Of a stretch of DNA of 64,000 bases, positions 3,060 to 48,691 are shown piece after piece. A program made the translations under genes and the position numbers. Origin of the DNA: a virus; IMG/VR virus record IMGVR_UViG_3300031760_000017; one strand, given 5' to 3'. The notes below the pieces were generated by a model, which saw only the letters and a list, made by a program, of their open reading frames with translations, was not told the origin of the DNA and did not search any database. How positions within the stretch are numbered: position 1 is the stretch's first letter; each line of letters begins with the position of its first letter.

Positions 3060-3101
3060 ATATAAAGAAAAAATCTTAGAACCTGGTTAAATGGTTTTTT
3101 A

Positions 3102-3170
3102 AATGGCTCGGCACGCAGACACTCGTATCTCAGAAACGAAAAGCTGGTTTGGATTTTTTATTTTGCATTT
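3102..3170 (+). repeat. conserved ~68-nt element, copy A (second copy at 60203-60270)
   Basis: AATGGCTCGGCACGCAGACACTCGTA...TTTGGATTTTTTATTTTGCATTT aligns with copy B. There are scattered substitutions and one 1-nt indel. Confidence 0.6.
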
Positions 3171-3261
3171 CTTGGGCAGGAATAAATAAATTAATTTTTC
3201 TAATTTTAATATATAATTAGTGAAAAAATAATTTTTAGCAGGAGGAGCATTATAAAAAACT

Positions 3262-16600: not shown

Positions 16601-18295
16601 TATATAATTATGATTTAAATCTTCTACCGTACATTTAAATATAGCAAATCCATCTATTGCATTAACTTGTAAATCATAAATTTTATTTTTACTTACTCTT
16701 TGTGTATATTTAAAATTAGAAAGAGTAGTTTCATAATTATTTAGTTCTTGTTGTGCTTCATTTTTAAATCTAGTTCCAGCTTGAATACTATTTTTTAATG
16801 ACTGCAAAGCATTATAAGTAGTTGTATAGTTATTATTTAATTCAGTCGTTGTTTCTAAAGCTTCTAATCCACAGTTATTATTTTGCCAAGCCCAATAGTA
16901 ATTATAATTTTGTATATTTTCAACTCCATTTACTTTACAAGTTAATGTTGGATGTCCAATATCATAATAAAATTGAGTGCCACTATCTGACTATATTATA
17001 ATATCTGCCGCATTAGCTTGTAAATTTTGAATTGTGATTTCCTTAGAAATAACTGTATTATCATATAAAACCGCAACTTTTAATTTATTTTCTCTTGCAG
17101 TTGCATCTTCTCGATAAACTATATAAGTACTATCTCCAGGCACCCATTCTATTTGAGGAGCTTGAGTTGCAGTTCCAGGTGAAATAATATTTTTTTCATT
17201 TACACATTTCCAACCGCGTCCTAAATGTTGATTATAATACTAACTATTTGCAAAAATACCAACATTTTCTTTTCCCCAATAGAAAGATAAATTTTGAGAA
17301 TCTGATACTAATTTTCCTTTTATTCTTACCTGTGCGGTAACTATTAATTCTTCTTTTGGAGAAGGATTTGTAGCTTGTTTAAAGAAAATACCTTTTGGAG
17401 TATAAAATGAAATAGATATTCCATTATTTTCTTCATCGCTTTTTCTTATAGCACCTAAAATTTCAACAGAAGAAATAAAGATATTTACTCCATTATCTGT
17501 TGATCTTAAAGGATAATGCTAAGGTGTCCCGGATGCTGAATTAGGAAAATCCTAGCAAAAGATTTCAATAGAATCAATTCTAACAAAGTTTTCTCCATCT
17601 ATTTCAAAAATCTAATATTGTCTAGTATTATGTTCAAATCTATAAGGATTACCTGTCATATTATCTTCATCAAGCGTATAGCTTTTAATTATCTATTTAG
17701 AATTTCCATTAGATTCTAAATTAGAATTATCATTAAATACTAAATTAAAAGTTATACCATAATGACCTTGATATTGTTCCTATAATGGAATAGTATTTCT
17801 TATAGTCATTCCTGCAATTAAAGAAGATGCTTTTTTAATATATTGATTTAAAGCATCATTATCTAATTTTAGCGGTGATGAGCTAACTCCATATTTATAA
17901 ATAACATAACTATATTTCTTATATTTTGTAGCTAAATAATAAATGCCGCTTGTTGTAACGCAATTCTTACCTAATATATCATATGCCTACTATCCAACCG
18001 CTTCAGAAACATAGTTAATTCCAAGTTTCTAAGTTGTACCAAGAATAGTTTTATCTTTGCTCATATCATTTCCTGGAACTAAAATATAAACATATGCACC
18101 TTTAGAATAAGTAATATCTGCCGAACCCGCATACGCAAAAAAAGTTGTATCTTGATAACGACATTTATATTTTCCTATTGTCGCATCTTCACAAGAAATA
18201 ATTTGAGCTTGAATAGTTTTATCATATCCAGCTTTTTTTATTGAATTATTAGTTAATAATTCAATCGCGTCTAAAATTTTCTAATTAACGCCCAT
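13604..18295 (-). CDS. giant tail hub/fibre protein, 1563 aa with TAG=Gln
   Basis: Track ORFs at 16807, 15949, 15118 and 14107 all share the frame of ATG 18295. Hand translation of 15118-15434 and other stretches shows only TAG interruptions. The N-terminus is OB-fold-like (GAYVYILVPGNDMSKDKTILG). The C-terminus has repeated SGQIGGW(T/N)IN motifs. Confidence 0.65.
13823..13890 (-). repeat. 30-nt tandem repeat (about 2.3 copies) inside the giant tail gene
   Basis: ATAATCTGATCTAATTTGTGAAGCAGT(C/T)A(A/G) occurs twice plus a partial copy. It encodes YLTASQIRSD repeats. Confidence 0.8.
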
Positions 18296-18611: not shown

Positions 18612-21600
18612 TTATTTTCTTCTCATAGCACGTTGAGCCGCTAAATTAACTAAATCATTTAAAGCTTCTTCAATCTATTGTTTACTATTTACAGCAGGGA
18701 AAGATGCTGAAATCTGAACTTTTTGATCAATAACATCACTAAGAGTTGAAGCTGAATTTAAAGAAAATCTATCAGTAGAGATTTTCCCAATTTTATTTAA
18801 TAAAGATGTTCCTATATTTTTTGTAATAGATCTTAAAATAGAAACACTATTTAAAATATTTCTAGTATCTTCTGAATTTAAAACTAATTCTTTTTCATCC
18901 AATATTGCTAAACGACCTTGTTTTGAATTCCAACTTCCTGTATATCCACCTGTATCATATCTTTTTATTTTTCTATTATAAAGTCCAACAGGATCATTTA
19001 TATTCATATGAAGAACGTCATGATTATCTAAATGTCTAAGATCTCCAACTCTATTGCTATTATAATCATAGACTCCATTATCAGCTCCTCTTCCCCATCT
19101 ATAATGATTTTCTGAGCCATTAGGATAATATGTTTCAGATTCAGGCTCTTCATAAGAAACAGTATCTTGCATTCTGTTTAAAGCATCTTGATAGCGGTCA
19201 GCAGCAGACTACATTCTACTAGCATTAGCTTCTGCATTACTTGCTAAAGCATCTAAAGCCGCTTGAGCTTCATTACTATAATCCCAATCAGCATCCGCCA
19301 TTCGAATCCTCATATCTTCATAAGTCTGCGCAGTTGCCTAAGCTGATGCGGCAGCCTATTGCTAAGCTTGAACGAAATCATATAATTGAGTAACTGCATT
19401 TGCCGCAGCTGTATAAACAGAATCATAATCATAAACAAGAGCTTGAGCAGCATCTCTTAAATCTTGAATAGCAGATAATTCATCAGCCATTCTATTGATT
19501 AAATCATCATTAACTTCAATTAATCCAGTAAATTCATCTATTAAATTATCTACTCCATTTTGAACATCATTTAAATCTATACCAGCAGTATTAGCTAAAC
19601 TATCAAGTTCTTGCTAATAATTAAAAGTAGCCTCATGAATCTCTTCAAAAGCTTCTTGACAAGATGGTATAAAACCGCCCTATCCCGCAACTTTATCAGA
19701 CATCTATTGAATACCGCTATTCCATGCTGGAACTAAATCGCCCATTAGAATACCTTTTTCATCATCTGTCATCTTTTGATAATTTGCAACATCTATGTTA
19801 TAAATTGCGGCAATCTCATTAAAAGCAGATTCAGTTAGATTTTTTCTAATATCAGAATTTTGTTGAGCTTTATTATTAATATATTCTCCATATTGCTCTT
19901 TTAATAAAGCTAGCTATCTAACTCTTTCTTCTTCTGTTAAAGAAGTATCAGTAACTATATCTTTATATTTCTATTGGAAATCTCTCCAAGCAGAAAGCAT
20001 TTCCTATAAATTATTTTGATAACGCTATTTATCAAAATTATATAATTCATTTTGAGCACTAATTAATCCTTGTTCAGCATCAAAAATACCATTTTGATCA
20101 GCAACATATTGATAAGAATAGTTACCTTGTGAATCACGTTTTAATCTTAAAGAAGTTTTACTTGCTCTTATATCTTCTAAAGCAATTCGTGCTTGTTCAA
20201 TTTGAAGCATCTTCTACGCTCTATCTACATCATATTGAGTAATCTTCTATTTATTCTTTAAATTATCTAATTGCTCATCCATAACTTTCTTTAAAGCTTG
20301 TTGATGTTTCAATTGATTTGGATTATTTAATGATTTTTGGAACTTATTTTGTAAATCCTGAAGAGCAAAAGCAGCATTAATTGTATCTAAGTATTCATCC
20401 GCATTTTTATTCATTAAATCCCATTCATCACTTAAATAATCAGTACCTTTTCCGTCTGTAATTTTCTTATCTAGCTAATCAAAAATTTTATCAATAGCAT
20501 TACTGTATTTTTCACTGATTGTTTTTGCGGAAGTTTCTATTAAAGAATTGATTTCCTTAATAGCGTTTTTATAATTTTCTTCAAATTGTTTTGCCGCATT
20601 AGTATCTCCCGCTAATAAAGCTTGCTACCATTCTTGTTTCCAAAAAGCAATCTATTTTCTTAAAGCATCTATTTGATTATTTTGATTTTTTTCTAATTCA
20701 GCATAATAATTTTCCATAGCTTCATAATTTTCATCACCATAAAGCAATTTTAATAAATCCATATCATGCTAAATTAAATCATTAATAAAATCATAATCAT
20801 CTTGTTGTTTCTCAAATTGTTTAGAAATATCATCAATAGTATCTAAATAAGCTTTATCAATATCCGCAATTAAATCTTCAATATCCTACATTTGTTTCAT
20901 TAATTCGGATAAATCACTTTTTAAATCCGCCATAGCTTGTGCTTTATTATTACCATAAATTGCGGAAGTTCCTTTTTTATCTATATCTTCTATTTCTTTA
21001 CGAGTATTTAATAATTGCTATGTTAATTTTTGAACAGTACCTATTGAACCATTTATATTAAAGAAAGAATCTAAATCCATAACATTTTTAGTAGCATCTT
21101 TAAAAATCTTATCGAAATCAGTATCTTTCATAAAATCAGTTTTATTAATTACATTTCTTACAAACTAATTCCAATCTTTTGCAGCTTCGCCCATCTATAA
21201 TCGAATTTCAAGCTACATTCTAAATTTTTTAATATTAATTTCAATCTACTTTTGGGCAATCTATTCAATCTAATCTACTATATCTTCCATGCTATTTCTT
21301 AAAGAATCATAATCTTTAATTTTAGCTTGAGTATTTTTTAAATCTTCTTGAGCAGATTGCACAGCTTTATCATAAGCTGAAATTTGTTTATCTAATCCTT
21401 CTTTATAAGTTTTATCAGTAGAAGCATTATAAGATTCAATTAAACTATTCTATTCATTTATTAATCTATTAACCGCATCTTGTTTAGCTTGTAATATAGA
21501 CATATAATCATTTATATTTCCATATTCATCAAAAGTAACTCCTAATGAATTTAGAATTTGCTGTTGATTAGCTAAATCTTGTCTTTGAAGCTATTGCTTT

Positions 21601-24600
21601 TCTTTTAATTTTCTTTTTTGAGCTTCTAATATTGCGGTTTGTTTATTTAAATTATCAAGTAATTGTTTACCATATAATTTATCTTGAATTTTTTGAGTTC
21701 GCTCTAAATCACGATTAATTTTCTTTATTTCAATGTCAATATCGTGATATAAATCTTTCTCTTGCTCTATTGGCTTTTTAGTATTTTTAGTAGAAGTATT
21801 AGTATTATCTTTTGCAGTTTTATCTGCTGCTTTTTGAGCTTTTTCAGCCTCAGCTTTTCTCCTTGCTTGACCCTTTGCTCCAGCGCCATTAGCAGATTTT
21901 TTATATTTAAAACCACCACCAGAAGTTTTATGTGCGGAAACAACTTTTAAAGCAAATGCAGTATGCTATTTAGTTTCCGTATCATCCGCAGGAACTGTTT
22001 TATAACGAATAGTAGGCACTCTATATGTTACCTAACTTCCATCTATGGGGTTTACACCAGTAACTTCTCTATTTGTAACTTCAGCTTCTGCGCCAGTGTA
22101 CTGAACTGTATCTTGCGCAGTTGTTTTTTGCTAGATGATTTCAGCATCTACACCCATAGAAGCTAAATAATCTGTTGCTTGTTTTGCTGTCATATTGGCA
22201 GCATTTACCATATTACTTAATTCTTTTAAGAATCCTTCATTATCCAATGAAGCTCCGATTTTTAAATCCTATAAATTTTTACCCTAATAATATAATTCCA
22301 TTATATCATCAAAGTCTTTCTTAAAAGCTTCTGTATCTAAATGAATTTGGGTAGCAATATCTTGTCCAGCTAATTGCATTAATTGATCATAAGCTTCTAC
22401 ATTACCATCAATTGCCGCCTTCATTAATTTTAAATTCTCAACATTTGTTAAGAAATTATTAGATAATGACTAACCATCTAAATCAAGTAAATCAGCATAA
22501 GCATCTCTTAATCCAGAAATTGCCTATGATTGTTCTTGCCAAGAGCCACTTTGTAAAGCTCCTAGCCAAGTATCATAATTATCAACAACATCTTGAATAG
22601 CATTATCAAATCTTAAAATTGATTCAGCAAGTTCTTCCGCACCTTCACGATCCTATTTTAAAACTTTTGATAATTCTTCACTTTGCTATGATAAACTTTG
22701 AATATCTTTAGTAAGATTTGCATAAGCTGTCTCATCAACATCCGAATCTGTTGGAAACATAGCATCATGTAACTGATGAGCAAGTTTTTCTTCTTCCTAT
22801 TTTAACTAAGCAGTCCTATCACTTAAATCTTTAGTTTGATCACCTACTTTAGCAACAGCATCATAAATCTACTTTACTATACCTGGAAACTCCTAAAGCC
22901 ATTCTTTTGATTTTTGTTGCTTTTCAATAATAGCTGTCCATTCATTTATAATAGGCTAAGTGGCTCCATCTGTATCTTTTAAATATTCAATTTGTTTCTT
23001 TAATAAATCAAAATCAGCATGATTATTTTGAAGAGCTCTATTATCTAATTCATCATAATCATACTGTTTCTAAGATAATAATTGAACTCTATTTAATTCA
23101 GATTCAATCTAGAATAAAGTATTTTTAAATCCTTCTAATTTTAAATTATTAATAAGTGTATAGAACTATTCTGCATCTTCAGTCATTTTATATGACCCAT
23201 TAGCCATCATAGTAAAGAAAGATTGAATCTAAGGAGCTAAATCTCCAAATTCAGTTTTTGAAACGCTCTTTCCACTTCTAACTTGATCTTCAAGAGACTG
23301 ATAAAAAGCATAATTCTCTGCAGCGTCTCCCTGCATAGCAGAAATTTCTTTTATATTAGAAAAATCTGCATGTGAGATATTATCAACAACATTACCTAAA
23401 GTATCCCAGTTAGAAAATATTGATGGAGAAAGTTCAAAAGCTTTAAATAATTCCTCTAAATGTTGTTCATCTAATTCAGATAAATTTTTAATTATTTTAT
23501 CCGGAATTATTCCTGATGCTTTTTCTTGAATTTTATCAATAATTTTACCAATTTCATTATATTGATTATAAAGTTGAGACTATTCAGTAAGAAGATATGA
23601 ATCAGCTAATTCTTTTGCAGTTGTATCTCCTACAAATTCACCCTGCTATTCTAAAGCTGCTTGTAATTTTTGTCTTTGTTGTAAAAATTCTCCAGCATTT
23701 GTTACATTAGAAAAATCAAGGACGCCATGAGCTTCTTTTGATAATCCTATAAAAGCTGCTTGATTTTCATTAACATCTTTCGAAGCGTTGTCAAAAGCTT
23801 CCATCTATTCTGCTGAATCTGCAACCCATTGTGTTAAATCTTTATACCATTGAGATTGTCTCTATTGTTCGCTTAAAGTTTTGCTTAAATCTTCAACAGC
23901 TTTTTTAACTCTAGGATACATTATTAACAAGGACTATAAATTATAATCAACTTTATATTCAATAGTTCCATTATCTTGTTGGCGAAAACCATTTTCACTT
24001 AATATCTCTTTAGCTTCATCGCTCATTCTATTGCTACCAAAAGATAAAGCATAATCAATTTGATTGTCTTCACCAAGTGAACCTTTTACACCACGTTTTC
24101 CTTGAAGTTCAAAAGAGCTCCATAGGTTTTGTTTTGCTGCTTCATACTATTCTTTACTGGAATTATATTTTTTCTAAGCTTCTTCAGCTTTTAATTCTTT
24201 TAAAGTTTGAATTAAATTATCATAATTATTACGTAATCTATCTGCCGCATCGCCTTCAAGACCATATTGATTAATTAAATCTTCTATTCCTGATTTTAAA
24301 TCAGATCTTGTAATCTAGCCTTCTTTATATTTTTGATTTAGCTCTTCAATAGATTTATATAATTCTTGATTTCTACTTAATTGTTCTTGAAGTGTATTTG
24401 CTTCCTAAATAACTGATTCATTATGTTCAATTTGTGCTTTTCTAGCCTATTTACTTTTATTTATTAAAAAACCGAGTGCTGTTACAGCAGCTAATGCAGC
24501 TGTAATAAAAGCTCCTAATGGAGTAATTGTAATAACACTATTAAGAAATTGAATTTGAAAACCTGCTTCTGTTGCAGCAGCACCTATAGCACCAAATGAA

Positions 24601-27263
24601 ACGGCCTTAGCTCCATTAGAAGTAATAACAGCTGCCGCTTCTGCTGTACTCTTTCTAAATTGATAATTTAAAAGATTAGTTGCTTTTCCAACAGCCCCAA
24701 TTCCTTTAATTAACATTGGTAATGAAAAAGATAAATTTGTAACAATTTGAAGTATTCTTTGTCCAGTAGATAAATCCTGATTTTTCCAAACACTTCCTAA
24801 ATGTTGAATTTGTTGAATAGAAGACCCAATTCGAGCAAGACCTGCAGCAGCTTTTGCATATTCCTCAATTCTAACAGCTCTGTCTTTATTTGACATCTCC
24901 CCATTAAAATCGTTTTGTTTTGCATTCATTTGACCGCGCAATTTCTACAATTCAGGAACAATTTTTGGATCATTATAAACCTATTTAAAAATTTTTTCTA
25001 TTTTTGTTTTAATTTCATTACCACTAGTTTCTGTTATTTCTGCTAATTTATCAAAAAAATCTTTAAATTTTTGAAAAGTTTCTTCATTTACACTTTTAGA
25101 AAATCTTTTAGGTAAATCTTCATATAATTGACCAATCTCTTCAATAGCTTTTTGAGTTTCTTTAGAAAACTATTGATTACTAGTCATTTCATCAAAAACT
25201 TCTTTAAGATCTTTTGCTCCTAATCGTAAAGTAGTAAAAAAACTTCTTATGCCATCTTGCCCTACTTTATCAAATATATTTAAAAACTTTTCAGTTGATT
25301 GAGAAACAGACTCAGTTGATTCTTGAAATTCATCATATTCTTGCTAACATTTTTCTAGCATATTTAATATTTCATCAATTTTTTCAGGCTTTCCAACAAT
25401 ATTTTCTAATTTTGTCGTACCTAACTCTTGTCCTGAAATTCTATCTATTAACTATTCTAAAGGTTGTTTTTGTTTAACTAAAGTTTGAATCTAATTTCCA
25501 ATATTAGTAATATCATTTAATAATTTTTGTGCTCCTTGAAATTCTTCTGGAGACATCATTCTTGATAGTTCTAATAAATGTTCTCTATCTTTTAATAAGC
25601 TTTTACTTACTTCATCTAATTCAGGAATTCCTTGCCAATCTTTTGTTGCTTGTAAGGCATTATCAAATTCTCTAGCATTACTATTTGCAATCTCAAGGTT
25701 AGTAATAGTTGTATTTATTCCTTTAGCAATTTGTTCACTAAAAACAGCAACCCCAATAGCTCCAAGAGATTGTAATAATGCCTTACCTCCGCCTAAGCCA
25801 TCAATAAAGTTTGCAACAAAAACTGCAACACCCGATAATGCATCAGTTATACTCTTTATAGAATCAACATCAATTAAACTATCATATACATCTTCAACGG
25901 AAGCTTTTAATTGCTTTAAATGCGCGGCAGTTGAATCCATATATATATCTTGTTGCTTTTGTAAGGTACCTGCTGCATTTTGCGCTGTATTTAATGCTTC
26001 ATTATATTCTTCAAAATTATCAAATAAAGCAAGTAAATTATTATATTGTCTTTGACCAGCCATTGTTTGAGCTAAATAAATTTGCTGTTCACGAGTTAAA
26101 TCATCCCAACGACCGCCAATTTCTTCCATAACTTCGCCCATATCACGAAGATTTCCATTCATGTCAAGAACATTAAAACCAAGTTGTGCCATTTGACTAG
26201 AATATCTACCAAGAGTAACTCCATCTTCATCAATTCCAGCTTTAATATCACTAATACGAGCATAAACAGTTCTTAAAGCTGTACCAACACTCTAAGGAGC
26301 TTGTCTTGTTGCAGAAATAATAGTTGATAACTGTGCAGCTAATTGCTATTCACTAACACCCATTGTGGCGGCCGTACTTGCAACTTTACCCATACCTTTA
26401 CTTAATTCTTCAAGATCTGATGCGGTTGTTGCAGCAACAGCAGCTAATCTATCAATATATATCTAAGCCTAATCCGCATTAACCTTATAACCATTCCAAA
26501 CGGCAGTTAACTGTTCAGAAACGTCTGCTGTTGATTGATTTGTAACATTTGCTGTTTTTAATGTAATTGCGGTTCTAGCCTAAATTTCTTTATCTGATAA
26601 ACCCTGTTGAGCATAAATTAAAGCAGCATTAGTGTAATCTACTGTTGTAGTGCCTAGTTGTTTGGCTGCATTATTGGCTTGCTCTGCAAATCTTCCCATT
26701 TCATCAGCAGTCTTACTAGTAACGATTCTAATATCATTTAATGAAGTATCTAATGATTTAACATATCCAACTGCTTGTTGAATAGTACTAGTGAAACCAC
26801 GAAATACAGTATTAGCTAAATTATATTTTGCAACATTAACAAAAGTCTAAGCAAATTTATCAAGCACTTGATGAGTTTGCTTTAATTCTGCATTAACACT
26901 TAATACATGAGACGATAAATTTCTAAAAGCATTCTCACCAACAGCACCGCTCTTAGAAAAACTTTGATAGACTTTTTCTATTGAAGTTCCAGATTCATTT
27001 AATGACTTATTAAAACTTTCAACATTTGTAGTATTTAATTTTGCATTAAAAGCAGCTCTTAATGCTTTCTATACATTTCCAGCCTATTTCTGAATTGCTA
27101 TTAAATCGGTTTTAGCTGTATCAAAATCAGAATTATTTATTTTCATCATATCTTTTATAGTTAAATTTTGAATCTCTTTTAAAGATTTTTTTAACTAATT
27201 TAAACTCTGTTTTTGAATGTCAAAACCAATAGAATAGATAATATCTCCACCCTTTTTTGCCAT
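18612..27263 (-). CDS. tail tape measure protein (TP901-family N-terminal domain), about 2883 aa with TAG=Gln
   Basis: ATG 27263 follows AAAAGGAG. Track ORFs starting at 26192, 24941, 20210 and 19172 are all in its frame. The N-terminal region matches the TMP pattern (…GMGKVASTAATMGVS…LGFNVLDMNGNLR…). TM segments lie at about 24450-24700. The C-terminus is typical (DTGGYTG…LAILDEKELVLN). Spot checks found no in-frame TAA/TGA. Confidence 0.7.
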
Positions 27264-40058: not shown

Positions 40059-40856
40059 ATGAAATATATATTAAAAAATGGTTAGTAGATAGAGTCCATT
40101 GATATTGGAAAGGCTAATATCAAAATAGGGCAAAGAAATAATCGACTTACTATTTGTGATAGAGCGCCTAATACAAAATCAAAAAAAGCACGTATAATTT
40201 GTTTATGTGATTGTGGACAATACACAGTTATAAATCATCAAGATTTTAAAAATGGACAAGTTAAAAGTTGTGGATGCTATGCAAAAGAAATACATGCTGA
40301 AATAGGAAGAAAAACTGCTATAGATTTCACTCAATCATAGTACAATAATAATCCATTTTATGAATATATTGAACCTACAGATGTTAGATTTAATTGGAGT
40401 AAACAAGTAGTATGGAAGGTTAAATGTAGAAAATGTAATAAAGAATATTTAGCAATTCCTAAAGAATTAATTTCTATAAATAATAATAAGCGTATGAATC
40501 CTTGTAATTGTTGGAAAACTTATAGTATTGGAGTTCAACGTATTATTGCAATATTAGAAAAAAATAATATTTCTTATGAATTAGAAAAAAAATTTGATAC
40601 ATGTATTTCACCAAAAGGAAATTGTTTACCTTTTGATTTCTATCTTCCTGATTATAAGATTTTAATAGAATATGATGGACAACAACATTTTAATATAGCA
40701 TTTGGTCAAAATGAAAATAAATTGATTCAACAAAAAAAATATGATAAAATAAAAAATGAATGGTGTAAAAATAATAATATTCATTTAATTAGGATACCTT
40801 ATTATCAAAAAGAAATTACAATTTAGAATTTAATAGGAGAAAAAATTAATGGGTAA
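40059..40856 (+). CDS. PD-(D/E)XK-type endonuclease (free-standing homing-endonuclease-like), 265 aa with TAG=Gln
   Basis: The N-terminal Cys-rich region is followed by FDFYLPDYKILIEYDGQQH...NIHLIRIPY. TAG TAG at codons 9-10. The frame continues through TAG 40824-40826 to TAA 40854-40856, overlapping the gyrB start. Confidence 0.55.
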
Positions 40857-42562
40857 ATTATATACAGAAGACTCGATAGAAAGCTTATCTCCTCTCGAAT
40901 TTACACGACTTAGACCTGGTGTATATTGTGGAGACACTAATTACTCTACTCAATTATTAATTGAAATATTTTCAAATGCAGTAGATGAATACCGTAATGG
41001 ATTTGGAAATAGAATTGATGTAACTATTCTCCCTGACATGATTTCGGTTAGAGATTATGGGCAAGGATTTATTCCAAATTCATATCGGGACGATGGAAAA
41101 ACAATTCTTGAAGCGGCATTTAGTGTTTTAAATACATCTGGAAAATATCGAGATGATGGAACCTATGAAGGAACTTCTTTAGGTTCTTTTGGTATCGGTT
41201 CAAAAATTACGACTTTCCTTTCTCATTGGTTAAGAGTTAAAACTATGAGAGATTCAGAGTGGGAAGAAATATATTTTAAAGAGGGCGTATTTCAATACCG
41301 AACAAGCGGTGCTGGAGGAGTTACTGGAACTCTTGTTGAATGGCAACCTTCAGAAGAATTTTTTACTCATCCAGAAGTAGAAATTAAAAAGGTCGTAGAT
41401 TTATTTAAAACTATTACATGTCTTTGCCCTGGTCTAACAATTAATCTATATGACCATGGAAAACATACTGTTTTTGTTTCTGATAATGGAATTAATGATT
41501 TAATTGATGAAGCTGTAAAAGACACAGAGCTTATTAATAATCGTTTTTCAATGAACTTTTCAGAAGGCAAAAATAAATTTGATATGGTTCTTACTTATGC
41601 AGGCAATTATTCTTTAACAATGGTCCCATATGTAAACACTGGACTTACAGAATCTGGACCTCATATTACTCAAATCAAAACCGTTATCACAAGAGAATTT
41701 AATAAATTCTTTAAAGAAAAAAAATGGTTAAAAGATAAAGATTCTAACTTAACTGGTGATGATATTCAAGAGGGTATGTATGTAATATTTAATCTTACTG
41801 CTCCCAATGTTGGTTATGACGCTCAAGTCAAGAGTAGAATCACAAAGATTGACATGAGTCCTTTTACTTCTGCATTAAGTACAAATTTAAACATTTGGCT
41901 TAATAATAATGAAAAAGAAATAAAAATTATTTTTGAAAAAGCAACAGCCGCCCGTAAGGCAAGAGATGCCGCAAAGAAAGCAAGAGATAAAGCAAGAGAG
42001 CAAAATAAAAAGAAACAGAAAGCTCTTAAATTCGATAGTAAACTTGCAGATTGTAATTCAAAAGATAGAAGTAAATGTGAAATTTATATTACTGAGGGAG
42101 ATAGTGCATCTGGTAATTTAAAGCTTGCTCGTGATAATGAAACACAGGCGGTTATGCCAGTTAGAGGTAAAATTTTAAATACTCAAAAAGCTACTTTTGC
42201 ACAGATTCAAAAAAATGCAGAAATTATGACAATGTGTGATGCCTTCTTTGGACCTGGAGACTGGTCTATTGACCCTAAGACTCTTAAAGTAACTTATAGT
42301 CAAGTAAGATATGGCAAAATAATCATTATGTCAGATGCTGATTGTGATGGAGCGCATATTAAAAATCTTTTTTACACCTTTATATGGAATTTCTGTCCTG
42401 ATCTAGTTCAAAAAGGGTATGTTTATGCTGGGGTTCCCCCGCTTTATAAAATTACTCTTCCTGCAAATAAAGGATATAAATATTTAAAAAATGATGAAGC
42501 ATTAAATGAATTTAAAAGCAAGAATAAAGATAAAAAATATCAGATCGGACGCATGAAAGGGT
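40849..42562 (+). CDS. gyrB: type IIA topoisomerase subunit B (GyrB/ParE-like), exon 1
   Basis: GHKL ATPase and Toprim motifs (EIYITEGDSASG, IIIMSDADCDGAHI). The conserved ...QIGRMKG is followed in the standard frame by unrelated residues, and joining at T42562 restores KGLGEM. Confidence 0.8.
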
Positions 42563-43595
42563 ACGAGTTAGTCTGGCCCTTAGCTACTTTTCCGCGGATC
42601 GGCGGGGTTGCCTAAAATAGGCAGCTAACGAGGTAGTCTTCTATTTAAAATTTTGGACATTTTAGGATAATCTGAAATGTGAAATTTTTATAATATATAG
42701 AAGATAATCTCGTGGGAAAAAATTACGATATTATCTCCAAAAAAATTAAAGGAGATAAAATAATGATAGGAATTTATAAAATTACAAATTTACTAAATGG
42801 TCATAGTTATATTGGATTATCTACTCATATTGAAGATAGATGGGAATATCATAAAAATCCATATAACTGGAATAGAGAAAAGAATAAATCTTTATACAAA
42901 GCAATTTTAAAATATGGTATCGAAAATTTTTCTTTTGAAATACTTGAATAGTGCTTACCAGAACAGTTAAGTGAAAAAGAAAAATACTATATTGAAAAAT
43001 ATAATACATATCATGCTGGTTATAATATGACTGCCGGCGGTGAAGATAATCAAGGTGAAAGTCATCCAAGACACAAATTAACAAAAGAAGATGTGATAGA
43101 TATTAGAACTAGATATGACAATCTTGAAAGAAAAAAAGATGTGTATTAGTTATATAAAGATAGAATTGGAGAAAGTGGTTTTTCTAAAATTTGGAAGGGC
43201 AACACTTGGACTTCTATAATGATGGAAGTTTACACTCCTTAGAATAAAAAATATCATTTACATGATACGGCAAATAAAGGCTCTCAAAATGGAAGAGCTA
43301 GATTAACTGAATAGGATGTAAGAGCTATTCGATTAAGAAGAAAGAACGGCGAAAAATTATCTGATGTATATGCAAATTATAAACATCTTTTAACCAAAGG
43401 GTCTTTTACGAATATTTGGTCGTATCAAAATTGGAAAAATATCGTAGTTTAAACCTGTATCGACTATCCCCTTTGTCGGGGAGTACATCTCTTATTGATA
43501 CAGAGATGGAAACAGTAGCGCCCTATGACTACAGTAAATGCGTTAGTACGAGGGCAAGAAATAGTCAGTGCCATTGGTAACAATGGATTAACACG
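42563..43595 (+). mobile_element. group I intron (1033 nt) carrying a GIY-YIG homing endonuclease gene
   Basis: The 5' exon ends in U (42562) and the intron ends in G (43595). Exon AAGGGU (42557-42562) pairs with intron GCCCUU (42576-42581), giving the U-G wobble at the splice site (P1). Both intron ends are G+C-rich and structured. Splicing restores frame and motif. Confidence 0.75.
42763..43452 (+). CDS. GIY-YIG homing endonuclease (intron-encoded), 229 aa with TAG=Gln
   Basis: AAAGGAG RBS. GIYKITNLLNGHSYIGLS...R...H...YGIENFSFEILE-TAG-C. Four in-frame TAGs. TAA at 43450-43452. Confidence 0.75.
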
Positions 43596-43786
43596 TAGGT
43601 GAAATGAGCATCGAAGAGACAGAAGAAACTTTAACTAATCCAAATAATAGAATCATTAAACAAATTACTGTTGAAGATGTTGCGGCGGCTGATAAACTTT
43701 TTAATGATTTAATGGGAAATACAGTTATTCCTAGAAAAAGGTATATTAAAGAGCATAGTGCGGAGGCTACTTACAATGCAGAATAA
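43596..43786 (+). CDS. gyrB: type IIA topoisomerase subunit B, exon 2
   Basis: (L)GEMSIEETEETL...ITVEDVAAADKLFNDLMGNTVIPRKRYIKEH matches the GyrB C-terminal tail. Spliced length is 1905 nt, or 634 aa. Confidence 0.75.
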
Positions 43787-44003
43787 TGAATGTGAATGTT
43801 TATATGGAATATATGATTGGGAACTATTTTTAAATAGTAAAAAACAATTTTTAAATAAAAGGTTATGTATCGTTCATATTCCAAAAGATAATTTTCATAA
43901 AGATAAATATTGTCTTTATTACGTCTGTAAAGAGAATCCTTTTGAAGAGGGAGTTAAAGCATATATTAATTTTTGTCCGTATTGTGGAAGAAAACTTTTA
44001 TAA
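43776..44003 (+). CDS. small Cys-rich (zinc-ribbon) protein
   Basis: MQNNECECLYG...CPYCGRKLL. ATG 43776 overlaps the gyrB stop region. Confidence 0.45.
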   Translation: MQNNECECLYGIYDWELFLNSKKQFLNKRLCIVHIPKDNFHKDKYCLYYVCKENPFEEGVKAYINFCPYCGRKLL

Positions 44004-44020
44004 TAAGGAGACTACATATA

Positions 44021-44272
44021 ATGCAAAATAAAGAAAAAATTATACAAATTTTAACAAATGATTTAAATTATTGTTATTGTGATAATTGTAAATATGGTGA
44101 TTATGAAACATATGAAGATAGATTTTGTGAAGGATGTTATAGAAAATATTCAAATTGGGCATTATCATCAATAACAGCAAAGGAAATAGCTGATAAAATA
44201 ATTCAATTAGGTGAAATTTTTCCTATATCAAAAGAAGAACTAGAAGGGGCTATGAATAAAAATGCAAAATGA
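44021..44272 (+). CDS. small Cys-rich protein
   Basis: AAGGAG RBS. MQNKEKIIQILTNDLNYCYCDNCKYGD...CEGC. Confidence 0.45.
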   Translation: MQNKEKIIQILTNDLNYCYCDNCKYGDYETYEDRFCEGCYRKYSNWALSSITAKEIADKIIQLGEIFPISKEELEGAMNKNAK

Positions 44273-46604
44273 TTTAACAAAAGAATTAGGAACAAATTTT
44301 ATAGAATATGCGGTTGCAGTGAATACTGACCGTGCCATACCTAATGCTAAAGATGGTCTTAAACCTGTTGCTAAACGTATCCTTTGGGGAGCTGAAGATA
44401 AAACTAAATGTGTATCTAGTAAACCACATATAAAAGCCGCAAAACTTGTGGGTGATATTATGGGTACATATCATCCACATGGTGATAGCTCTATTTATGG
44501 CGCTCTTGTACGTCTTTCTCAAAATTGGGTTATGCGTTATCCATTAATTGATTTTCATGGTAATAATGGTAATATTATTGGTGACGGTCCCGCACATATG
44601 CGCTATACTGAATGTCGACTAAGTAAATTAGCAGAAGATGGCTTACTTCAAGGAATAAAGAAAAATAATGTTGATTTTATTGACAACTACGATGAAACAA
44701 CAGAAGAGCCAGTATCTCTTCCAAGCATTTTTCCAAATCTTCTTTGTAATCCTAATAGCGGGATTGGTGTTGCTATGGCTTGCTCTTGGGCACCACACAA
44801 TTTTAGTGAAGTAGCTACGGCAATTAACCAATATTTATCTGGAGAAGAACCAATGTTACCTGGTCCAGATTTCCCAACAGGTGGAATTATTATTAACTCA
44901 AAAGATATTCCAAATATTATGAGAACTGGTCACGGTAGTGTTAAAGTTCGCGGAAGATATGAAATTGATAATCAAAAAATTATTTTTACTGAAATTCCAT
45001 ATGGCACTTCTGTAGAAGGTTTAGTAGCGGAAATTGGGAAAGCTTCAGATGAAAAAGAGATTGAAGGTATTGATAACATTCGTGATGAATCTAATAAGAA
45101 AGGAATTAGAATTGTTATTGAATGTGACAAAGGAATTAATCCTACAAGTATTGTAAAAAAATTATTTTCAAAAACAAATCTTCAAAGCTCTTTTAGTTAT
45201 AATCAAGTTGCTCTTATTGACAAAGTTCCAACAGAGTTAAATCTAAAAGATTGTATTAAGATTTATGTTGATCATAATATTGATTGTCTTATAAGAGAAA
45301 CTAAATTTGATTTAGATAAAGCAACTAATAGACTTGAAATTGTTAATGGTTTATTGCGGGCACTAGAAGATATTGACAATATCATAGCGCTGATTAAAGG
45401 TTCTGAAAATGCAACCGCCGCAAAAGAATCATTAATTAAAAAATATCAATTTACAGAAAATCAAGCTAAAGCAATTTTAGCTATGAGACTTTCTTCTCTT
45501 GCAAAACTTGAAAAAGTAGAACTTAATAAAGAAGCAGAAGATTTAGAAAATAAAATTTTTATGTTAAATCAAATTTTAGATAGTCGAGATAATCAAATTG
45601 ATATTTTAAAAGTTCGATTAAATGGATTAGTTAAAAAATATGGGGATGCCCGTCGTACAGAACTTACTAATATTGAAATAAAACCTGAAGAGAAAATCAT
45701 TGAGGAAGTTGTCCCAGAAGATTGTGTTGTAATTTTATCTCAATCTGGAAATATTAAAAGAATCGCTCAGAAGTCTTTTAAAGTTCAACGTAGAAATGGT
45801 AAAGGTGTAAAAACAAAAGATGATGTTATAATGTCTACCATCTCAACAAATACGATTGATAATTTACTTCTATTTACTAAAGAAGGTAAAATGTTTAAGA
45901 TTATTGTAGATGAAATACCAGTCGGTACTAATGCATCAAAAGGCGTACATGTTGGAAATTTAATTAACATGGGAATTAATGATGAAGTAATTGCAATTAC
46001 TTCTCTTGCTAGAAGTAATACTGCAAAATATGTTGTTTTCTTTACTAAGAAAGGTTTAATAAAAAAGACTTATTTAGAAGAATATACAAAAGTAAAACGT
46101 AGTACCGGAATTGCGGCAATTAAAATTAATGAGGGAGATTCTATTGCTAATGTAGAATTCATTAATGAGGAAGATATTCTTGTAATTACTAAGAATGGAA
46201 TGTCAATTCATTTTGAAAGCAAAAATATTAATCCTATAGGTAGAATCGCCGCAGGTGTTAAAACAATTAAGCTAGATGAAAATGATGAAGTTGTTGTAGG
46301 ACTACCAATTCATTCAGAGAAAGATATAATTGCTATCTTTTCAACAAAAGGATATGGTAAAAAGACTTCTATCAAAGAATTTAATTTACAAGGTAGAGGC
46401 GGCAAGGGTCTTGTAATTTATAGACCAAGCGCAATATATGGAGAGATTGCGGGAGCTGTAGTTGTGTCAGATAAAGACACGATTTTACTTACCGGTCAGC
46501 CAAATTCTATATGTATTGCCGCAACTGATTTGCCTTTGTTAACTAGAACAAGCTTTGGTAATATTATGATAAAATCAAACATTTCATCTATTGTAAAATT
46601 TTAA
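44262..46604 (+). CDS. gyrA: type IIA topoisomerase subunit A (GyrA/ParC-like)
   Basis: DGLKPVAKRILW, YHPHGDSSIYGALVRLSQ and RYTECRL (catalytic Tyr region), with C-terminal beta-pinwheel repeats. Confidence 0.85.
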   Translation: MQNDLTKELGTNFIEYAVAVNTDRAIPNAKDGLKPVAKRILWGAEDKTKCVSSKPHIKAAKLVGDIMGTYHPHGDSSIYGALVRLSQNWVMRYPLIDFHGNNGNIIGDGPAHMRYTECRLSKLAEDGLLQGIKKNNVDFIDNYDETTEEPVSLPSIFPNLLCNPNSGIGVAMACSWAPHNFSEVATAINQYLSGEEPMLPGPDFPTGGIIINSKDIPNIMRTGHGSVKVRGRYEIDNQKIIFTEIPYGTSVEGLVAEIGKASDEKEIEGIDNIRDESNKKGIRIVIECDKGINPTSIVKKLFSKTNLQSSFSYNQVALIDKVPTELNLKDCIKIYVDHNIDCLIRETKFDLDKATNRLEIVNGLLRALEDIDNIIALIKGSENATAAKESLIKKYQFTENQAKAILAMRLSSLAKLEKVELNKEAEDLENKIFMLNQILDSRDNQIDILKVRLNGLVKKYGDARRTELTNIEIKPEEKIIEEVVPEDCVVILSQSGNIKRIAQKSFKVQRRNGKGVKTKDDVIMSTISTNTIDNLLLFTKEGKMFKIIVDEIPVGTNASKGVHVGNLINMGINDEVIAITSLARSNTAKYVVFFTKKGLIKKTYLEEYTKVKRSTGIAAIKINEGDSIANVEFINEEDILVITKNGMSIHFESKNINPIGRIAAGVKTIKLDENDEVVVGLPIHSEKDIIAIFSTKGYGKKTSIKEFNLQGRGGKGLVIYRPSAIYGEIAGAVVVSDKDTILLTGQPNSICIAATDLPLLTRTSFGNIMIKSNISSIVKF

Positions 46605-46684: not shown

Positions 46685-48691
46685 ATGAAAAGCAAAATAG
46701 ATATTGGTATTTTAATTAAAAAACTTAATAAAGCTACTAAAGCCTATGATGCAGGGCATCCTATTATGACAGATAGAGAATGGGATGACCTTTATTTTGA
46801 GCTAGTCGAATGGGAAAGACAAACTGGTATTATTTTTGCAGATTCTCCAACCCAAAAAATTCATTTTGAAAAAGTTTCTGAATTAAAAAAAGTGAAACAT
46901 AATCATCTTATGCTTTCTCTTAATAAAACAAAAGATATTAAAGAAGTGTTAGATTTTGTAAAAAATAATCCTTGGATTGCTATGGCAAAAATGGATGGTT
47001 TAACATGTTCGCTTAGATACCTTCATGGAGAACTTGTTTCTGCAGAAACTCGCGGGGATGGTCTTATTGGTGAAGATGTCACCCATAATGCAAAGGTTAT
47101 TTCATCTATCCCTCAAAAAATTAATTACACTGATGAATTAATTGTTGATGGAGAAATCATTTGTACTTATGAAGATTTTAAACCATTTGAAAGAACTTAT
47201 AAAAATCCTAGAAATTTTGCAAGTGGAAGTATTAGATTATTAGATTCAAAAGAATGTCAAAAAAGACATCTTACTTTTGTTGCCTGGGATTCTTTTTGTG
47301 ATAATAAAATTTATGATGAGTATTTAAATATTCCTTATAATATTCAGATTACATTGTCTTTAAAATTACAAGTTCTTCAAGATTTAGGTTTTACAGTGGT
47401 TCCTCATTTGGTTGATGTAGAGGAATGGTCTGTTGAAGACGCTATATCAATAATTAGAGACAAATATCATACTATCTATCCTATTGATGGCGTTGTAATT
47501 AAATACAATGATATAGATGATTATAATGCGGCTGGCCGCACAGAACACCATTTTAAAGGCGGTTTAGCATATAAGTTTTATGATGAACTTTATGATACTC
47601 GTTTAAAATATATTCAGTGGACAATGGGAAGAACAGGCGTCCTTACTCCAGTGGCAGTTTTTGACCCCATTGATATTGATGGTTCAACAGTAGAAAGAGC
47701 GTCACTTCATAATGTTAGTGTTATGAGAGAGATTCTCGGTGATTGTGCTTATCGCGGTGAACCGTTAAAAATTGCTAAAATGAATCAAATTATTCCACAG
47801 GTCATAGAAGCTGGTCCAAAATATGATTATGGATATGTAATAAGTCATGGTGGAGTTTCCGCAAATGATGTTATTGAAAGATGTCCAATTTGTTATGGAG
47901 AGGTTGAATATAAAGAAAGTTCGGAAGGGGTCATAAATGCATACTGCACAAATCCAAAGTGTGAAGGAAAACTAGTTAATAGACTTGATCACTTTTGTGG
48001 GAAAAAAGGATTAGACATTAAAGGGATTTCAAAAGCAACTCTTGGAAAATTTATTGAATGGGGCTGGGTAGAAAACATAGAAGATTTATATTACATTTCC
48101 GAAAAATTTAGGTCGGACTTCTTACTTAAACCTGGCTTCGGAGTTAAATCAGTTATTAAAATTTTAAATGCAATAGAAGAAAGTAAACATACAACACTTG
48201 ATGCTTTTATTTCTGCTATTGGTATCCCTCTTATTGGACGAGCAGTTGCTAAAGATTTAACTAATTATTTTGAAACTTATGAAGATTTCCGTGATGCTGT
48301 AAAAGATAATTCATATCATTTCTATGATTTAGATAACTTTGGTATAGAAATGGAAAATAGTATTAAGAATTTTGATTACGCGGAAGCTGATAGACTTTCT
48401 AAAATTTTATATATTGAAGCCCCAGTTGTAAGCAACAATCAAATAAATAATAGTCTTTCAGGAAAAACTATAGTCATTACGGGAAAACTTACAAAATTTA
48501 AGAATAGAGCTGAATTGAAATCAGTTATTGAAAAACATGGCGGGAAAGTTACAGACTCAATTTCCGCAAAAACAGATATGTTAATAAACAACGATATAAA
48601 TAGCACATCATCTAAAAATAAAGCCGCAAAAGCACGCAATATACCAATTATAACAGAAACTGATTTTATACAGCTTTATATTGAAAATTAA
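46685..48691 (+). CDS. ligA: NAD-dependent DNA ligase
   Basis: Adenylation motif AKMDGLT, a four-Cys Zn finger CPICYG...CTNPKCEG, HhH repeats and a C-terminal BRCT domain (GKTIVITGKL). Confidence 0.85.
   Translation: MKSKIDIGILIKKLNKATKAYDAGHPIMTDREWDDLYFELVEWERQTGIIFADSPTQKIHFEKVSELKKVKHNHLMLSLNKTKDIKEVLDFVKNNPWIAMAKMDGLTCSLRYLHGELVSAETRGDGLIGEDVTHNAKVISSIPQKINYTDELIVDGEIICTYEDFKPFERTYKNPRNFASGSIRLLDSKECQKRHLTFVAWDSFCDNKIYDEYLNIPYNIQITLSLKLQVLQDLGFTVVPHLVDVEEWSVEDAISIIRDKYHTIYPIDGVVIKYNDIDDYNAAGRTEHHFKGGLAYKFYDELYDTRLKYIQWTMGRTGVLTPVAVFDPIDIDGSTVERASLHNVSVMREILGDCAYRGEPLKIAKMNQIIPQVIEAGPKYDYGYVISHGGVSANDVIERCPICYGEVEYKESSEGVINAYCTNPKCEGKLVNRLDHFCGKKGLDIKGISKATLGKFIEWGWVENIEDLYYISEKFRSDFLLKPGFGVKSVIKILNAIEESKHTTLDAFISAIGIPLIGRAVAKDLTNYFETYEDFRDAVKDNSYHFYDLDNFGIEMENSIKNFDYAEADRLSKILYIEAPVVSNNQINNSLSGKTIVITGKLTKFKNRAELKSVIEKHGGKVTDSISAKTDMLINNDINSTSSKNKAAKARNIPIITETDFIQLYIEN

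Follow-up and report, generated by a model that had tools for sequence, protein, structure and literature searches.

Introduction

Group I introns harbouring GIY-YIG endonuclease genes in the DNA-metabolism genes of phages are a classical finding, exemplified by the td intron of T4 (PMC3984707, PMC2988022). Here we describe an element of 1,033 nt at positions 42563–43595 on the plus strand of a 64,000-nt stretch of viral DNA (IMG/VR record IMGVR_UViG_3300031760_000017; this whole stretch is called the window below), which interrupts a gene for the B subunit of a type II topoisomerase. A preliminary description of the window had read it as a group I intron with a GIY-YIG open reading frame (ORF). 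We are highly confident that it is a group I intron: a full intron anatomy lies between exactly the boundaries proposed there, and its structure covaries in relatives. That such introns occupy phage DNA-metabolism genes is known; what it adds is a new insertion site, an unusual peripheral layout and a family of introns missed by Rfam. The literature searched, coverage of which was incomplete, yielded no earlier description of group I introns interrupting gyrB or another topoisomerase gene in phages.

The closest described system is the td intron with its endonuclease I-TevI (subgroup IA2), which likewise sits in a phage DNA-metabolism gene; the host gene of td is that for thymidylate synthase, whereas that in the window is the topoisomerase B subunit gene, interrupted at KG^LGEM. 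The two introns share the order P7, P7.1, P7.2, P3′, P8, J8/7, P7′ and P9 with a GNRA loop, the sequence of td running GACUA, P7.1, GUA, P7.2, GAAAC, P3′, P8, J8/7, UAGUC and P9 (GUGA loop). The P4 strands are ACGAGG/UCUCGU in the window and ACGGGG/CCCGU in td, and in both introns the ORF lies in the P6/P6a loop. I-TevI has the same catalytic domain as the window endonuclease, and its ribosome binding site (RBS) in td is sequestered in a hairpin. Unlike td, the window intron has a long and extended P5 and lacks the P9.1/P9.2 extensions; unlike I-TevI, its endonuclease contains recoded TAG codons and has an unrelated C-terminal half.

A mobile, endonuclease-associated element has also been described in the large-subunit gene of a type II topoisomerase, namely the T4 39/60 split with its mobA cassette (PMC2988022, 10.1101/2022.08.31.505936). 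Unlike the window intron, that arrangement yields two polypeptides and involves a ribosomal hop (a 50-nt bypass), with no ribozyme. The 39/60 split lies before the Toprim DxD motif, at a site differing from that in the window. Another parallel is provided by the Agate phages, where an early gene contains an intron whose endonuclease ORF is read through in-frame TGA, and in-frame stops have been proposed to delay the endonuclease until late infection (Borges et al., preprint 10.1101/2021.08.26.457843). The two cases share an endonuclease ORF with recoded stops, a stop-avoiding host gene and a gut phage; they differ in that the Agate case concerns TGA (Trp) in a host gene given as "an early gene" and the window case TAG, the comparison covering the ORF and its host gene rather than the RNA structure or site of the Agate intron. 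A stop-delayed intron endonuclease is in itself an already published concept, for TGA-recoded phages. Finally, introns of the Rfam family RF00028 have the same core logic, and the J8/7-P7′-P9 segment of the window aligns to the RF00028 consensus; unlike phage IA introns detected by RF00028, the family to which the window intron belongs is missed even where its members have no ORF.

The interrupted topoisomerase gene

The GyrB-like ORF at 40849–42615 (plus strand) is translated as 588 aa ending in ...KYQIGRMKG followed by YELVWPLATFPRIGGVA and a stop: past KYQIGRMKG, the frame of exon 1 runs through 17 unrelated codons to a TAA. The Gly codon occupies 42559–42561. T42562, T43596 and A43597 together form the codon TTA (Leu); GGT GAA ATG comes next and completes the motif KGLGEM, the insert sitting between bases 1 and 2 of its Leu codon. 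If joined, the exons read ...ATGAAAGGGT directly followed by TAGGTGAAATG..., and the frame continues as GEMSIEETEE...LFNDLMG... to the stop at 43786, giving a product of 634 aa. Pfam finds DNA_gyraseB (E 7e-28), Toprim and DNA_gyraseB_C in this product, the last of them covering residues 562–623 across the junction at 571/572. Exon 1 (40849–42562, plus strand) comprises 571 codons and the first base of the Leu codon, contains the DNA_gyraseB and Toprim matches, has no in-frame TAG and has more than 100 homologues at 76–95% identity. Exon 2 (43596–43786, plus strand) comprises bases 2 and 3 of the Leu codon and a 62-codon tail to the stop, with the DNA_gyraseB_C match. The preliminary description had the ORF diverge after ...QIGRMKG with its tail about 1 kb downstream, joined T42562 to T43596 to restore TTA, KGLGEM and 634 aa, and noted the base U before the insert (U42562) and G as its last base (G43595); translation and Pfam bear all of this out, to the base.

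The loci in viral contigs used for comparison are labelled L001, L002 and so on, L059 being the T4 td locus. When the joined sequence was used as a protein query, over 100 proteins of 628–646 aa were found at 76–95% identity and full coverage, as well as a few shorter forms of 576–603 aa. Uninterrupted alleles are common (633–640 aa, up to 95% identical). L162, the closest one found, with 91.6% nucleotide identity over the coding sequence, reads ...ATGAAAGGACTTGGTGAAATG... through the junction, and in both L162 and L001 exon 1 is contiguous with exon 2, the intron-less alleles aligning base for base over the junction; the comparison that the preliminary description had advised thus finds the gene continuous where splicing was proposed. 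Because of this alignment, and because the insert without its ORF folds far more stably than expected (z = −8.6, see below), the insert is not a product of chance. Other truncated forms (L002–L004) have the same insert in the same position. A GyrB naturally divided into two polypeptides at the KGLGEM point, the observation that had been named beforehand as one speaking against splicing, was not found among the homologues from the joined-protein search. L001 was considered as such a two-gene split and rejected, its gene being uninterrupted with an in-frame TAG (2304–2306) at the conserved Glu of the motif (KGLG*M); gene callers split this intron-less allele exactly at the intron site. This TAG also bears on which amino acid TAG encodes.

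A conserved RNA structure in a family of introns

The endonuclease of the insert has relatives in viral contigs whose identity to it declines gradually from 94% to 40%, and those down to about 45% are flanked by homologues of both non-coding halves of the insert, at 97% to 70% identity. The family was defined at the DNA level by two invariant core segments, CTGTATCGRCYA and, 64–94 nt further on, AAGAAATRGTCAG, a pattern found at 103 loci in viral contigs. About 80 of the 103 have the same 3′ exon (TAGGNGARATG..., encoding LGEM), that is, the KG^LGE site, and the remaining loci lie in different genes. About 20 of the loci lack an ORF and measure only about 260–330 nt; where such ORF-less copies occupy the KG^LGE site, insertion of a free-standing nuclease gene cannot account for them.

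Does the non-coding part of the insert have a conserved structure? Two alignments were analysed. In that of the 3′ half (44 sequences less than 93% identical), 97.2% of the cells were paired, against 77.2% after shuffling and 33–41% with slid partners, and 24 of 31 pairs had compensatory changes. In that of the whole intron (28 sequences, 15 of them ORF-less and taken straight from their loci and 13 with the ORF loop excised), the corresponding values were 97.8%, 78.9% and 38–45%, with 37 of 58 pairs compensatory. In neither alignment did any of 500 shuffles equal the observed value on any measure. The compensatory pairs include the exon-intron helix P1, the long-range P3, P7, P9.0 and P9, and a script analysis of the 44 sequences concurs. 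Without its ORF, the window intron is predicted to fold at −114 kcal/mol, against −74 ± 4.7 kcal/mol for shuffled sequences (z = −8.6), and the predicted fold recovers P3.1, P3.2, P4, P5, P6, P6a, P7.1, P7.2, P8 and P9. The group I core, consisting of the P3-P8 and P4-P6 domains and the P3/P7 pseudoknot, is present, with P3, P7, P8 and P6a backed by compensatory changes.

The order of the elements was derived by reading the sequences of the relatives side by side. It is P1, the 5′ strand of P3, P3.1, P3.2, GCUAA, P4, P5 with its extension, P4′, P6, P6a (with the ORF in its loop), P6′, J6/7, P7, P7.1, P7.2, P3′, P8, J8/7 (AAGAAA), P7′, P9.0 enclosing P9 (GNRA loop) and the terminal G. All of these elements are given below in plus-strand coordinates, and the intron as a whole (42563–43595) is delimited by the intron-less alleles, P1, P9.0 and the terminal G.

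P1 is formed by the last six exon bases, AAGGGU (42557–42562, U42562 being the U of the 5′ splice site), and GCCCUU (42576–42581), which is part of an internal guide sequence at 42573–42581. This helix is 98–99% paired, its splice-site U-G is present in 28 of 28 and 44 of 44 sequences, and two of its pairs have compensatory changes. The guide tracks synonymous changes of the Gly codon, from GGG/CCC to GGA/UCC or GGC/GCC, and where an A-U pair has become G-C in relatives, an A-to-G change in the Lys codon is matched by the guide. These exon and guide changes confirm the P1 pairing with U-G wobble that had been proposed. A candidate P10 of 3 bp is formed by CUG (42573–42575) with the exon-2 bases UAG (95% paired, little covariation). 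The 5′ strand of P3, GCUACU with a UUU extension (42583–42591), pairs with 43510–43519 over about 900 nt, and five of six pairs are compensatory. It is followed by hairpin P3.1 (42592–42605, CCGC/GCGG; 100% paired, three of four pairs compensatory), located between the 5′ strand of P3 and J3/4, and by hairpin P3.2 (42609–42623, UGCCUA/UAGGCA; five of five scored pairs compensatory), both of which are in the minimum-energy fold. The segment 42624–42633, invariant in relatives, consists of the conserved GCUAA, including J3/4, and the 5′ strand of P4 (ACGAGG, 42628–42633), which pairs with UCUCGU (42708–42713); this region resembles UAAACGGGG...CCCGU of T4 td. P5 and its extension (42638–42703; 42638–42644/42697–42703, with a distal helix 42657–42665/42672–42680) are also in the minimum-energy fold. 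Next come J5/4 (AUAA), the 3′ strand of P4 (42708–42713) and the 5′ strand of P6 (GGG, 42714–42716), together 42704–42716, P6 pairing with CCU at 43454–43456. The sequence AAUCUCGUGGG does not vary among the 28 aligned relatives, and across the family it is matched with no more than two substitutions. The loop containing the ORF is closed by P6a, in which 42720–42732 forms 13 bp with 43438–43450; in the script analysis of the 44 sequences, seven of seven scored pairs are compensatory, with 90 double-change cells. The alignments also place the 3′ strands of P6a and P6 (43438–43456), and the 3′ strand of P6a consists of the last ORF codons and the first base of the stop codon. Two pairings were tried in this half and rejected: UUAGCU/AGCUAA as P2, which L008, L009 and others break without compensation, and GGGG/UCUC as P4, which clashes with the covarying hairpin at 42592–42605, whereas ACGAGG/UCUCGU fits and matches td.

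In the 3′ half, the 5′ strand of P7 (GACUA, 43462–43466) pairs with UAGUC (43562–43566) in 100% of cases, and U-A has changed to C-G in three sequences. P7.1 (43467–43471/43478–43482) and P7.2 (43487–43492/43502–43507), which together occupy 43467–43507, have 11 of 11 pairs compensatory and are 99–100% paired. They are followed by the 3′ strand of P3 (AAA-C-AGUAGC, 43510–43519) and by P8 (43520–43555), which consists of GCCCU (43520–43524) and AGGGC (43551–43555) with a distal helix at 43530–43532/43546–43548; three of its three scored pairs are compensatory and it is 91–96% paired in the majority register, the window sequence being offset there by one MAFFT column (36% in the window register). 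J8/7 (AAGAAA) and the 3′ strand of P7 (UAGUC), together 43556–43566, are invariant across the family. The intron ends (43568–43595) with P9.0 (GUG 43568–43570/CAC 43592–43594; 98% paired, two of three pairs compensatory), P9 (43571–43576/43581–43586; 99% paired, five of six compensatory), whose GUAA loop is a GNRA loop in nearly all relatives, and G43595. This G is conserved in all 64 same-site constructs, in which the 3′ splice site was located by a pattern requiring a G; since the pattern itself demands the terminal G, P9.0 and the intron-less alleles constitute the independent evidence for the 3′ end. Other assignments, P3 as GGUAGUC/GACUAC and P7 as GCCCU/AGGGC or UGACUA/UAGUCA, were rejected, a U-to-C change in L002 and L004 breaking them; L020 (GGCCA/UGGUC) fixes P7 at 43462–43466/43562–43566, and GCCCU/AGGGC is P8. 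Two loops are conserved as well, that of P7.2 (43493–43501, UAUUGAUAC), almost invariant across the family, and that of P8 (43533–43545, CAGUUAAUNCGUUAG type), conserved in many members. A pairing partner was found for neither of these two loops, which probably make tertiary contacts.

Relation to accepted group I introns

R1, a covariance model of the 3′ half of the family, has a single match in the window (43453–43601, 151 bits, the best of all its matches), and its scan of the 64 kb found no second copy of the intron. It also matches the 3′ half of the T4 td intron over the full model length (L059:1399–1516, 31.1 bits, E 2.6e-7) and two RF00028-verified introns in L062 and L114 (33 bits each); E-values from R1 are rough because calibration was shortened. 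P7.1 and P7.2 lie between P7 and the 3′ strand of P3, at a position identical to that in T4 td, and this exact placement is a hallmark of subgroup IA. Helices of the P7.1/P7.2 type mark features of group I subclasses (PMC3984707). Their placement and the R1 match to td point to an assignment to subgroup IA, of a T4 td-like or IA2-like kind.

Several points weigh against this identification. The scan with Rfam group I models advised in the preliminary description gave no significant match for the insert, either whole or by halves: RF00028 had no match at its gathering score in the window nor at E ≤ 10 in 42300–43900, and on the 3′ half alone it reached 9 bits (E 4.9), below the 50-bit cutoff. 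In the ORF-less relatives, too, RF00028 found nothing at the gathering score or at E ≤ 1, while further group I introns at those loci reached 85–99 bits with it (98.7 bits in L114, 85.3 bits in L062). Unlike td, the window intron has no P2, P3 following P1 directly, and it has two covarying hairpins between the 5′ strand of P3 and J3/4. Covariation is silent on P4 and P6, which are 100% paired, because they do not vary in relatives. Only 65–70% of P5 cells pair, as P5 differs in length among relatives and is poorly aligned, although its base covaries by eye. Lastly, catalysis, DNA cleavage and the timing of expression are deduced from sequence.

The negative Rfam result is weak evidence for ORF-bearing phage introns, since T4 td itself, used as a control, scores 40.3 bits with RF00028, under the cutoff of 50, its 5′ part being misaligned into the I-TevI ORF. 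In Bastillevirinae phage IA introns, endonuclease loops split RF00028 matches, and existing models can miss phage variants (PMC11878797). The 9-bit partial match aligns the J8/7-P7 segment of the window, AAGAAAUAGUC, to the consensus AAGAUAUAGUC of the guanosine-binding region, and the next GNRA hairpin to P9. Hairpins after P3 are not unprecedented, as "P3.1" is given as an optional group I pairing (PMC3873408); within the family, the intron in L138, which is in another gene, lacks the two P3-P4 hairpins and has P3 beside J3/4. Since Rfam is blind to the insert, covariation and similarity to T4 td are the basis for its identification as an intron. When the whole locus was compared by blastn with a deposited phage collection, the sole match was one of 63 nt to Staphylococcus phages, at chance level.

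In some relatives several group I introns lie close together (L114 2145–2369 and 2595–2845; L062 6369–6595; L120). In L114 about 210 nt separate the end of the RF00028-detectable intron from the family intron downstream of it, both lying apparently within one gene, and in L120 two copies of the family are spaced by about 480 nt (2607–2704 and 3087–3187). L138 also has Rfam matches at the gathering score to Hammerhead_II (4965–5029, minus strand, 40.6 bits) and to the FuFi-1 RNA (5463–5733, plus strand, 65.3 bits).

The endonuclease and probable mobility of the intron

The ORF within the intron (42763–43452, plus strand) has 229 codons with four in-frame TAGs and no in-frame TAA or TGA before its stop, a TAA at 43450–43452. 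Its product matches the Pfam GIY-YIG family PF01541 (31.4 bits against a cutoff of 22.6, E 2.3e-7) and, over its full length, PHROG 7168 "homing endonuclease" (E 1.7e-37). By BLAST, its N-terminal 115 residues share 29% identity with I-TevI (E 6e-11), and the C-terminal half is unrelated to I-TevI, including the DNA-binding domain of the latter. The GIY and YIG motifs are at residues 3–5 and 16–18, and R26, a Glu and the Asn of GYN align with the catalytic Arg, Glu and Asn of I-TevI, which we take to be R27, E75 and N90. Thus the ORF encodes a homologue of GIY-YIG homing endonucleases, as had been claimed from the letters alone. The claim that it has an RBS of its own, besides the four TAGs, also holds: GGAG (42751–42754) precedes the ATG at 42763 by 8 nt, and it lies inside a hairpin (42731–42758, plus strand; UUAUCUCC 42731–42738 with GGAGAUAA 42751–42758) that is kept in ORF-bearing relatives and that a chance match to an Rfam small RNA also scored as a hairpin. 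By analogy with td/I-TevI, this hairpin may limit translation of the ORF. The anti-RBS sequence AUUAUC (42730–42735) could also pair with GAUAAU of the core (42703–42708, from the 3′ end of P5 into J5/4), a pairing that would compete with ribozyme folding and might link translation of the endonuclease to splicing.

Intron and exons have diverged to different extents. The introns of L002 and L004 are 95.8% and 94.9% identical to that of the window, against 81.0% and 80.4% for exon 1 and 87.4% and 86.9% for exon 2, and the closest host allele found, L162, is intron-less. Exon 1 of L002 matches the window at 100% over the 60 bases that adjoin the intron and at 80% elsewhere, as would be expected of a co-conversion tract. 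Judged from these sequences, the discordance between intron and exons, together with the presence/absence polymorphism, is the pattern predicted by homing, so that lateral spread of the intron appears to be active.

Two observations concern related elements near such genes. In L017 and L018, a relative of the endonuclease (about 52% identity) is free-standing just after the topoisomerase B stop codon (about 1400–1500) and is preceded by GGTCTAGGTGAAATG, which resembles a copy of the GLGEM-coding target site. In the window, the end of a 265-codon ORF with four in-frame TAGs (40059–40856, plus strand) slightly overlaps the start of the topoisomerase gene. This ORF matches the PHROG homing-endonuclease families phrog_559 (E 9e-38), phrog_9084 (E 1e-29) and phrog_7140 "intron encoded nuclease" and no Pfam family, and may be a second, free-standing homing endonuclease adjoining that gene. 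Gene calls upstream of the intron-less alleles L162 and L163 also include its C-terminal 110 aa.

TAG recoding

When TAG is read as sense, ORFs of at least 100 aa cover 90% of the window instead of 63%, and reading frames of 1,564 and 2,888 aa become open. The use of TAG is bimodal across the genes of the window. TAG is absent from both topoisomerase B exons, the GyrA-like gene (44262–46604), the NAD-ligase gene (46685–48691) and the RNase H gene (39491–39994), and abundant in the endolysin gene (37098–39383, 14 TAGs) and in two giant ORFs (13604–18295 with 26 and 18612–27263 with 71; minus strand). The intron ORF has 16 TAGs per 1000 codons inside a TAG-free gene, and related intron ORFs have 0–12 TAGs depending on the contig. 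The endonuclease is plausibly adapted to the recoded genome. At positions aligned with TAG, members of the endonuclease family mostly have E, Q or K, with Q about fivefold over background by a rough estimate. None of the four tRNAs at 396–1395 of the window has a CUA anticodon. Elsewhere in the window, an ORF of 829 aa (30774–33263, plus strand) matches Pfam MVP_shoulder (E 5e-23) and Vault_3 (E 2e-7), domains of the major vault protein that are unusual in phage.

Proposed mechanism and alternatives

An outline of the proposed process, whose steps are the standard ones for the group I class, is as follows. The precursor mRNA would fold with its exon end AAGGGU paired to the guide GCCCUU in P1, placing U-G at the splice site, and an external guanosine bound in P7 would attack after U42562. 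G43595 would then be brought into the same site by P9.0 and P10, the freed exon end would attack after G43595, and the exons would be joined in frame for the 634-aa protein. The endonuclease, for its part, would cut intron-less alleles of co-infecting relatives, the repair of which would copy the intron in (homing). Its synthesis is probably limited to the phase or conditions of TAG decoding, because its RBS lies in a hairpin and its frame contains four TAGs, while the interrupted gene and the replication genes nearby have no TAG.

In this scheme, splicing without help and an active endonuclease are what we infer from sequence, and so is the label "self-splicing". Many group I introns require protein cofactors in vivo. 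An intron that depends on a helper, either an RNA chaperone of the host or phage or a maturase encoded by the intron itself, would accord with this general need, with the absence of P2 in the family and with the reduction of P5 to a short hairpin in some relatives, for example L019. The T4 td-type core, to which that of the window is similar, nevertheless self-splices in vitro, and the roughly 20 ORF-less relatives retain the same core, so the encoded protein is not an obligatory cis-encoded maturase. We consider dependence on a helper unlikely.

It is very unlikely that the insert is a decayed relic that no longer splices, leaving the topoisomerase as a pseudogene or as a functional truncated protein of 588 aa. 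Failure of Rfam to recognize the RNA might be expected of a relic. Every core pair of the window is nonetheless standard, and the window sequence is the best match of all to the family model; exon 2 is in frame and conserved, nothing but TAG, a codon decoded in this genome, interrupts the endonuclease ORF, and the changes in the family are compensatory rather than random.

Phage genes split by a free-standing endonuclease cassette into two assembling polypeptides, such as T4 gp39/gp60 and Aeh1 NrdA, are documented (PMC2988022, PMC3045599), and the same might be imagined here without any splicing, as ATG 43604 (the Met of GEM) opens an ORF of 60 aa that is called as a separate gene in relatives. 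The AGGUGA before this ATG is, however, only about 2 nt away and is simply the conserved coding sequence of LGE, and the exon-1 frame extends into the insert through its 17 unrelated codons. Moreover, 200 nt on the 5′ side and 140 nt on the 3′ side of the ORF form a covarying, ribozyme-like structure in which the guide follows synonymous exon changes, and the ORF-less inserts of about 260–330 nt at the same site are inexplicable by a nuclease cassette. Such a split is highly improbable.

An intervening element of another kind, for which there is no specific indication, is scarcely credible: a group II intron is opposed by the finding of no group II match and no reverse-transcriptase ORF in Rfam and Pfam scans, an intein by stop codons in the host frame and an insert ORF out of frame with it, and translational bypass by the length of 1,033 nt, far beyond any known bypass.

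Implications

For gene annotation, the consequence of such an intron is that gene callers present an essential gene as a truncated GyrB and a 60-aa orphan, with no warning from Rfam. The understanding of group I introns in general is unchanged by the finding; with it, a type II topoisomerase subunit joins the phage DNA-metabolism genes colonised by these introns, and their active lateral spread appears to be documented here by intron/exon discordance and a putative co-conversion tract. The intron also provides a second, TAG-based example of an intron endonuclease with recoded stops in a stop-free host gene, and the pattern of TAG use fits the published idea that recoding times the translation of late genes.

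We put forward, as a tentative proposal, a wider reading in two parts taken together: that these introns constitute a large, unmodelled phage IA lineage, with no P2 and with two P3-P4 hairpins, located mainly at KG^LGE of topoisomerase B genes and invisible to RF00028 even when ORF-less; and that in TAG-recoded hosts the TAGs of the endonuclease act with the RBS hairpin as a timing gate, by which the endonuclease would be made only once TAG decoding is on, while the TAG-free host gene would be expressed early. With the alignment and the model, over 100 introns of this kind are recognized in viral contigs, and there are probably others beyond these. If this proposal is true, the intron loads of gut-phage metagenomes would be systematically under-counted, and a selfish element, besides the phage itself, would be making use of code switching.

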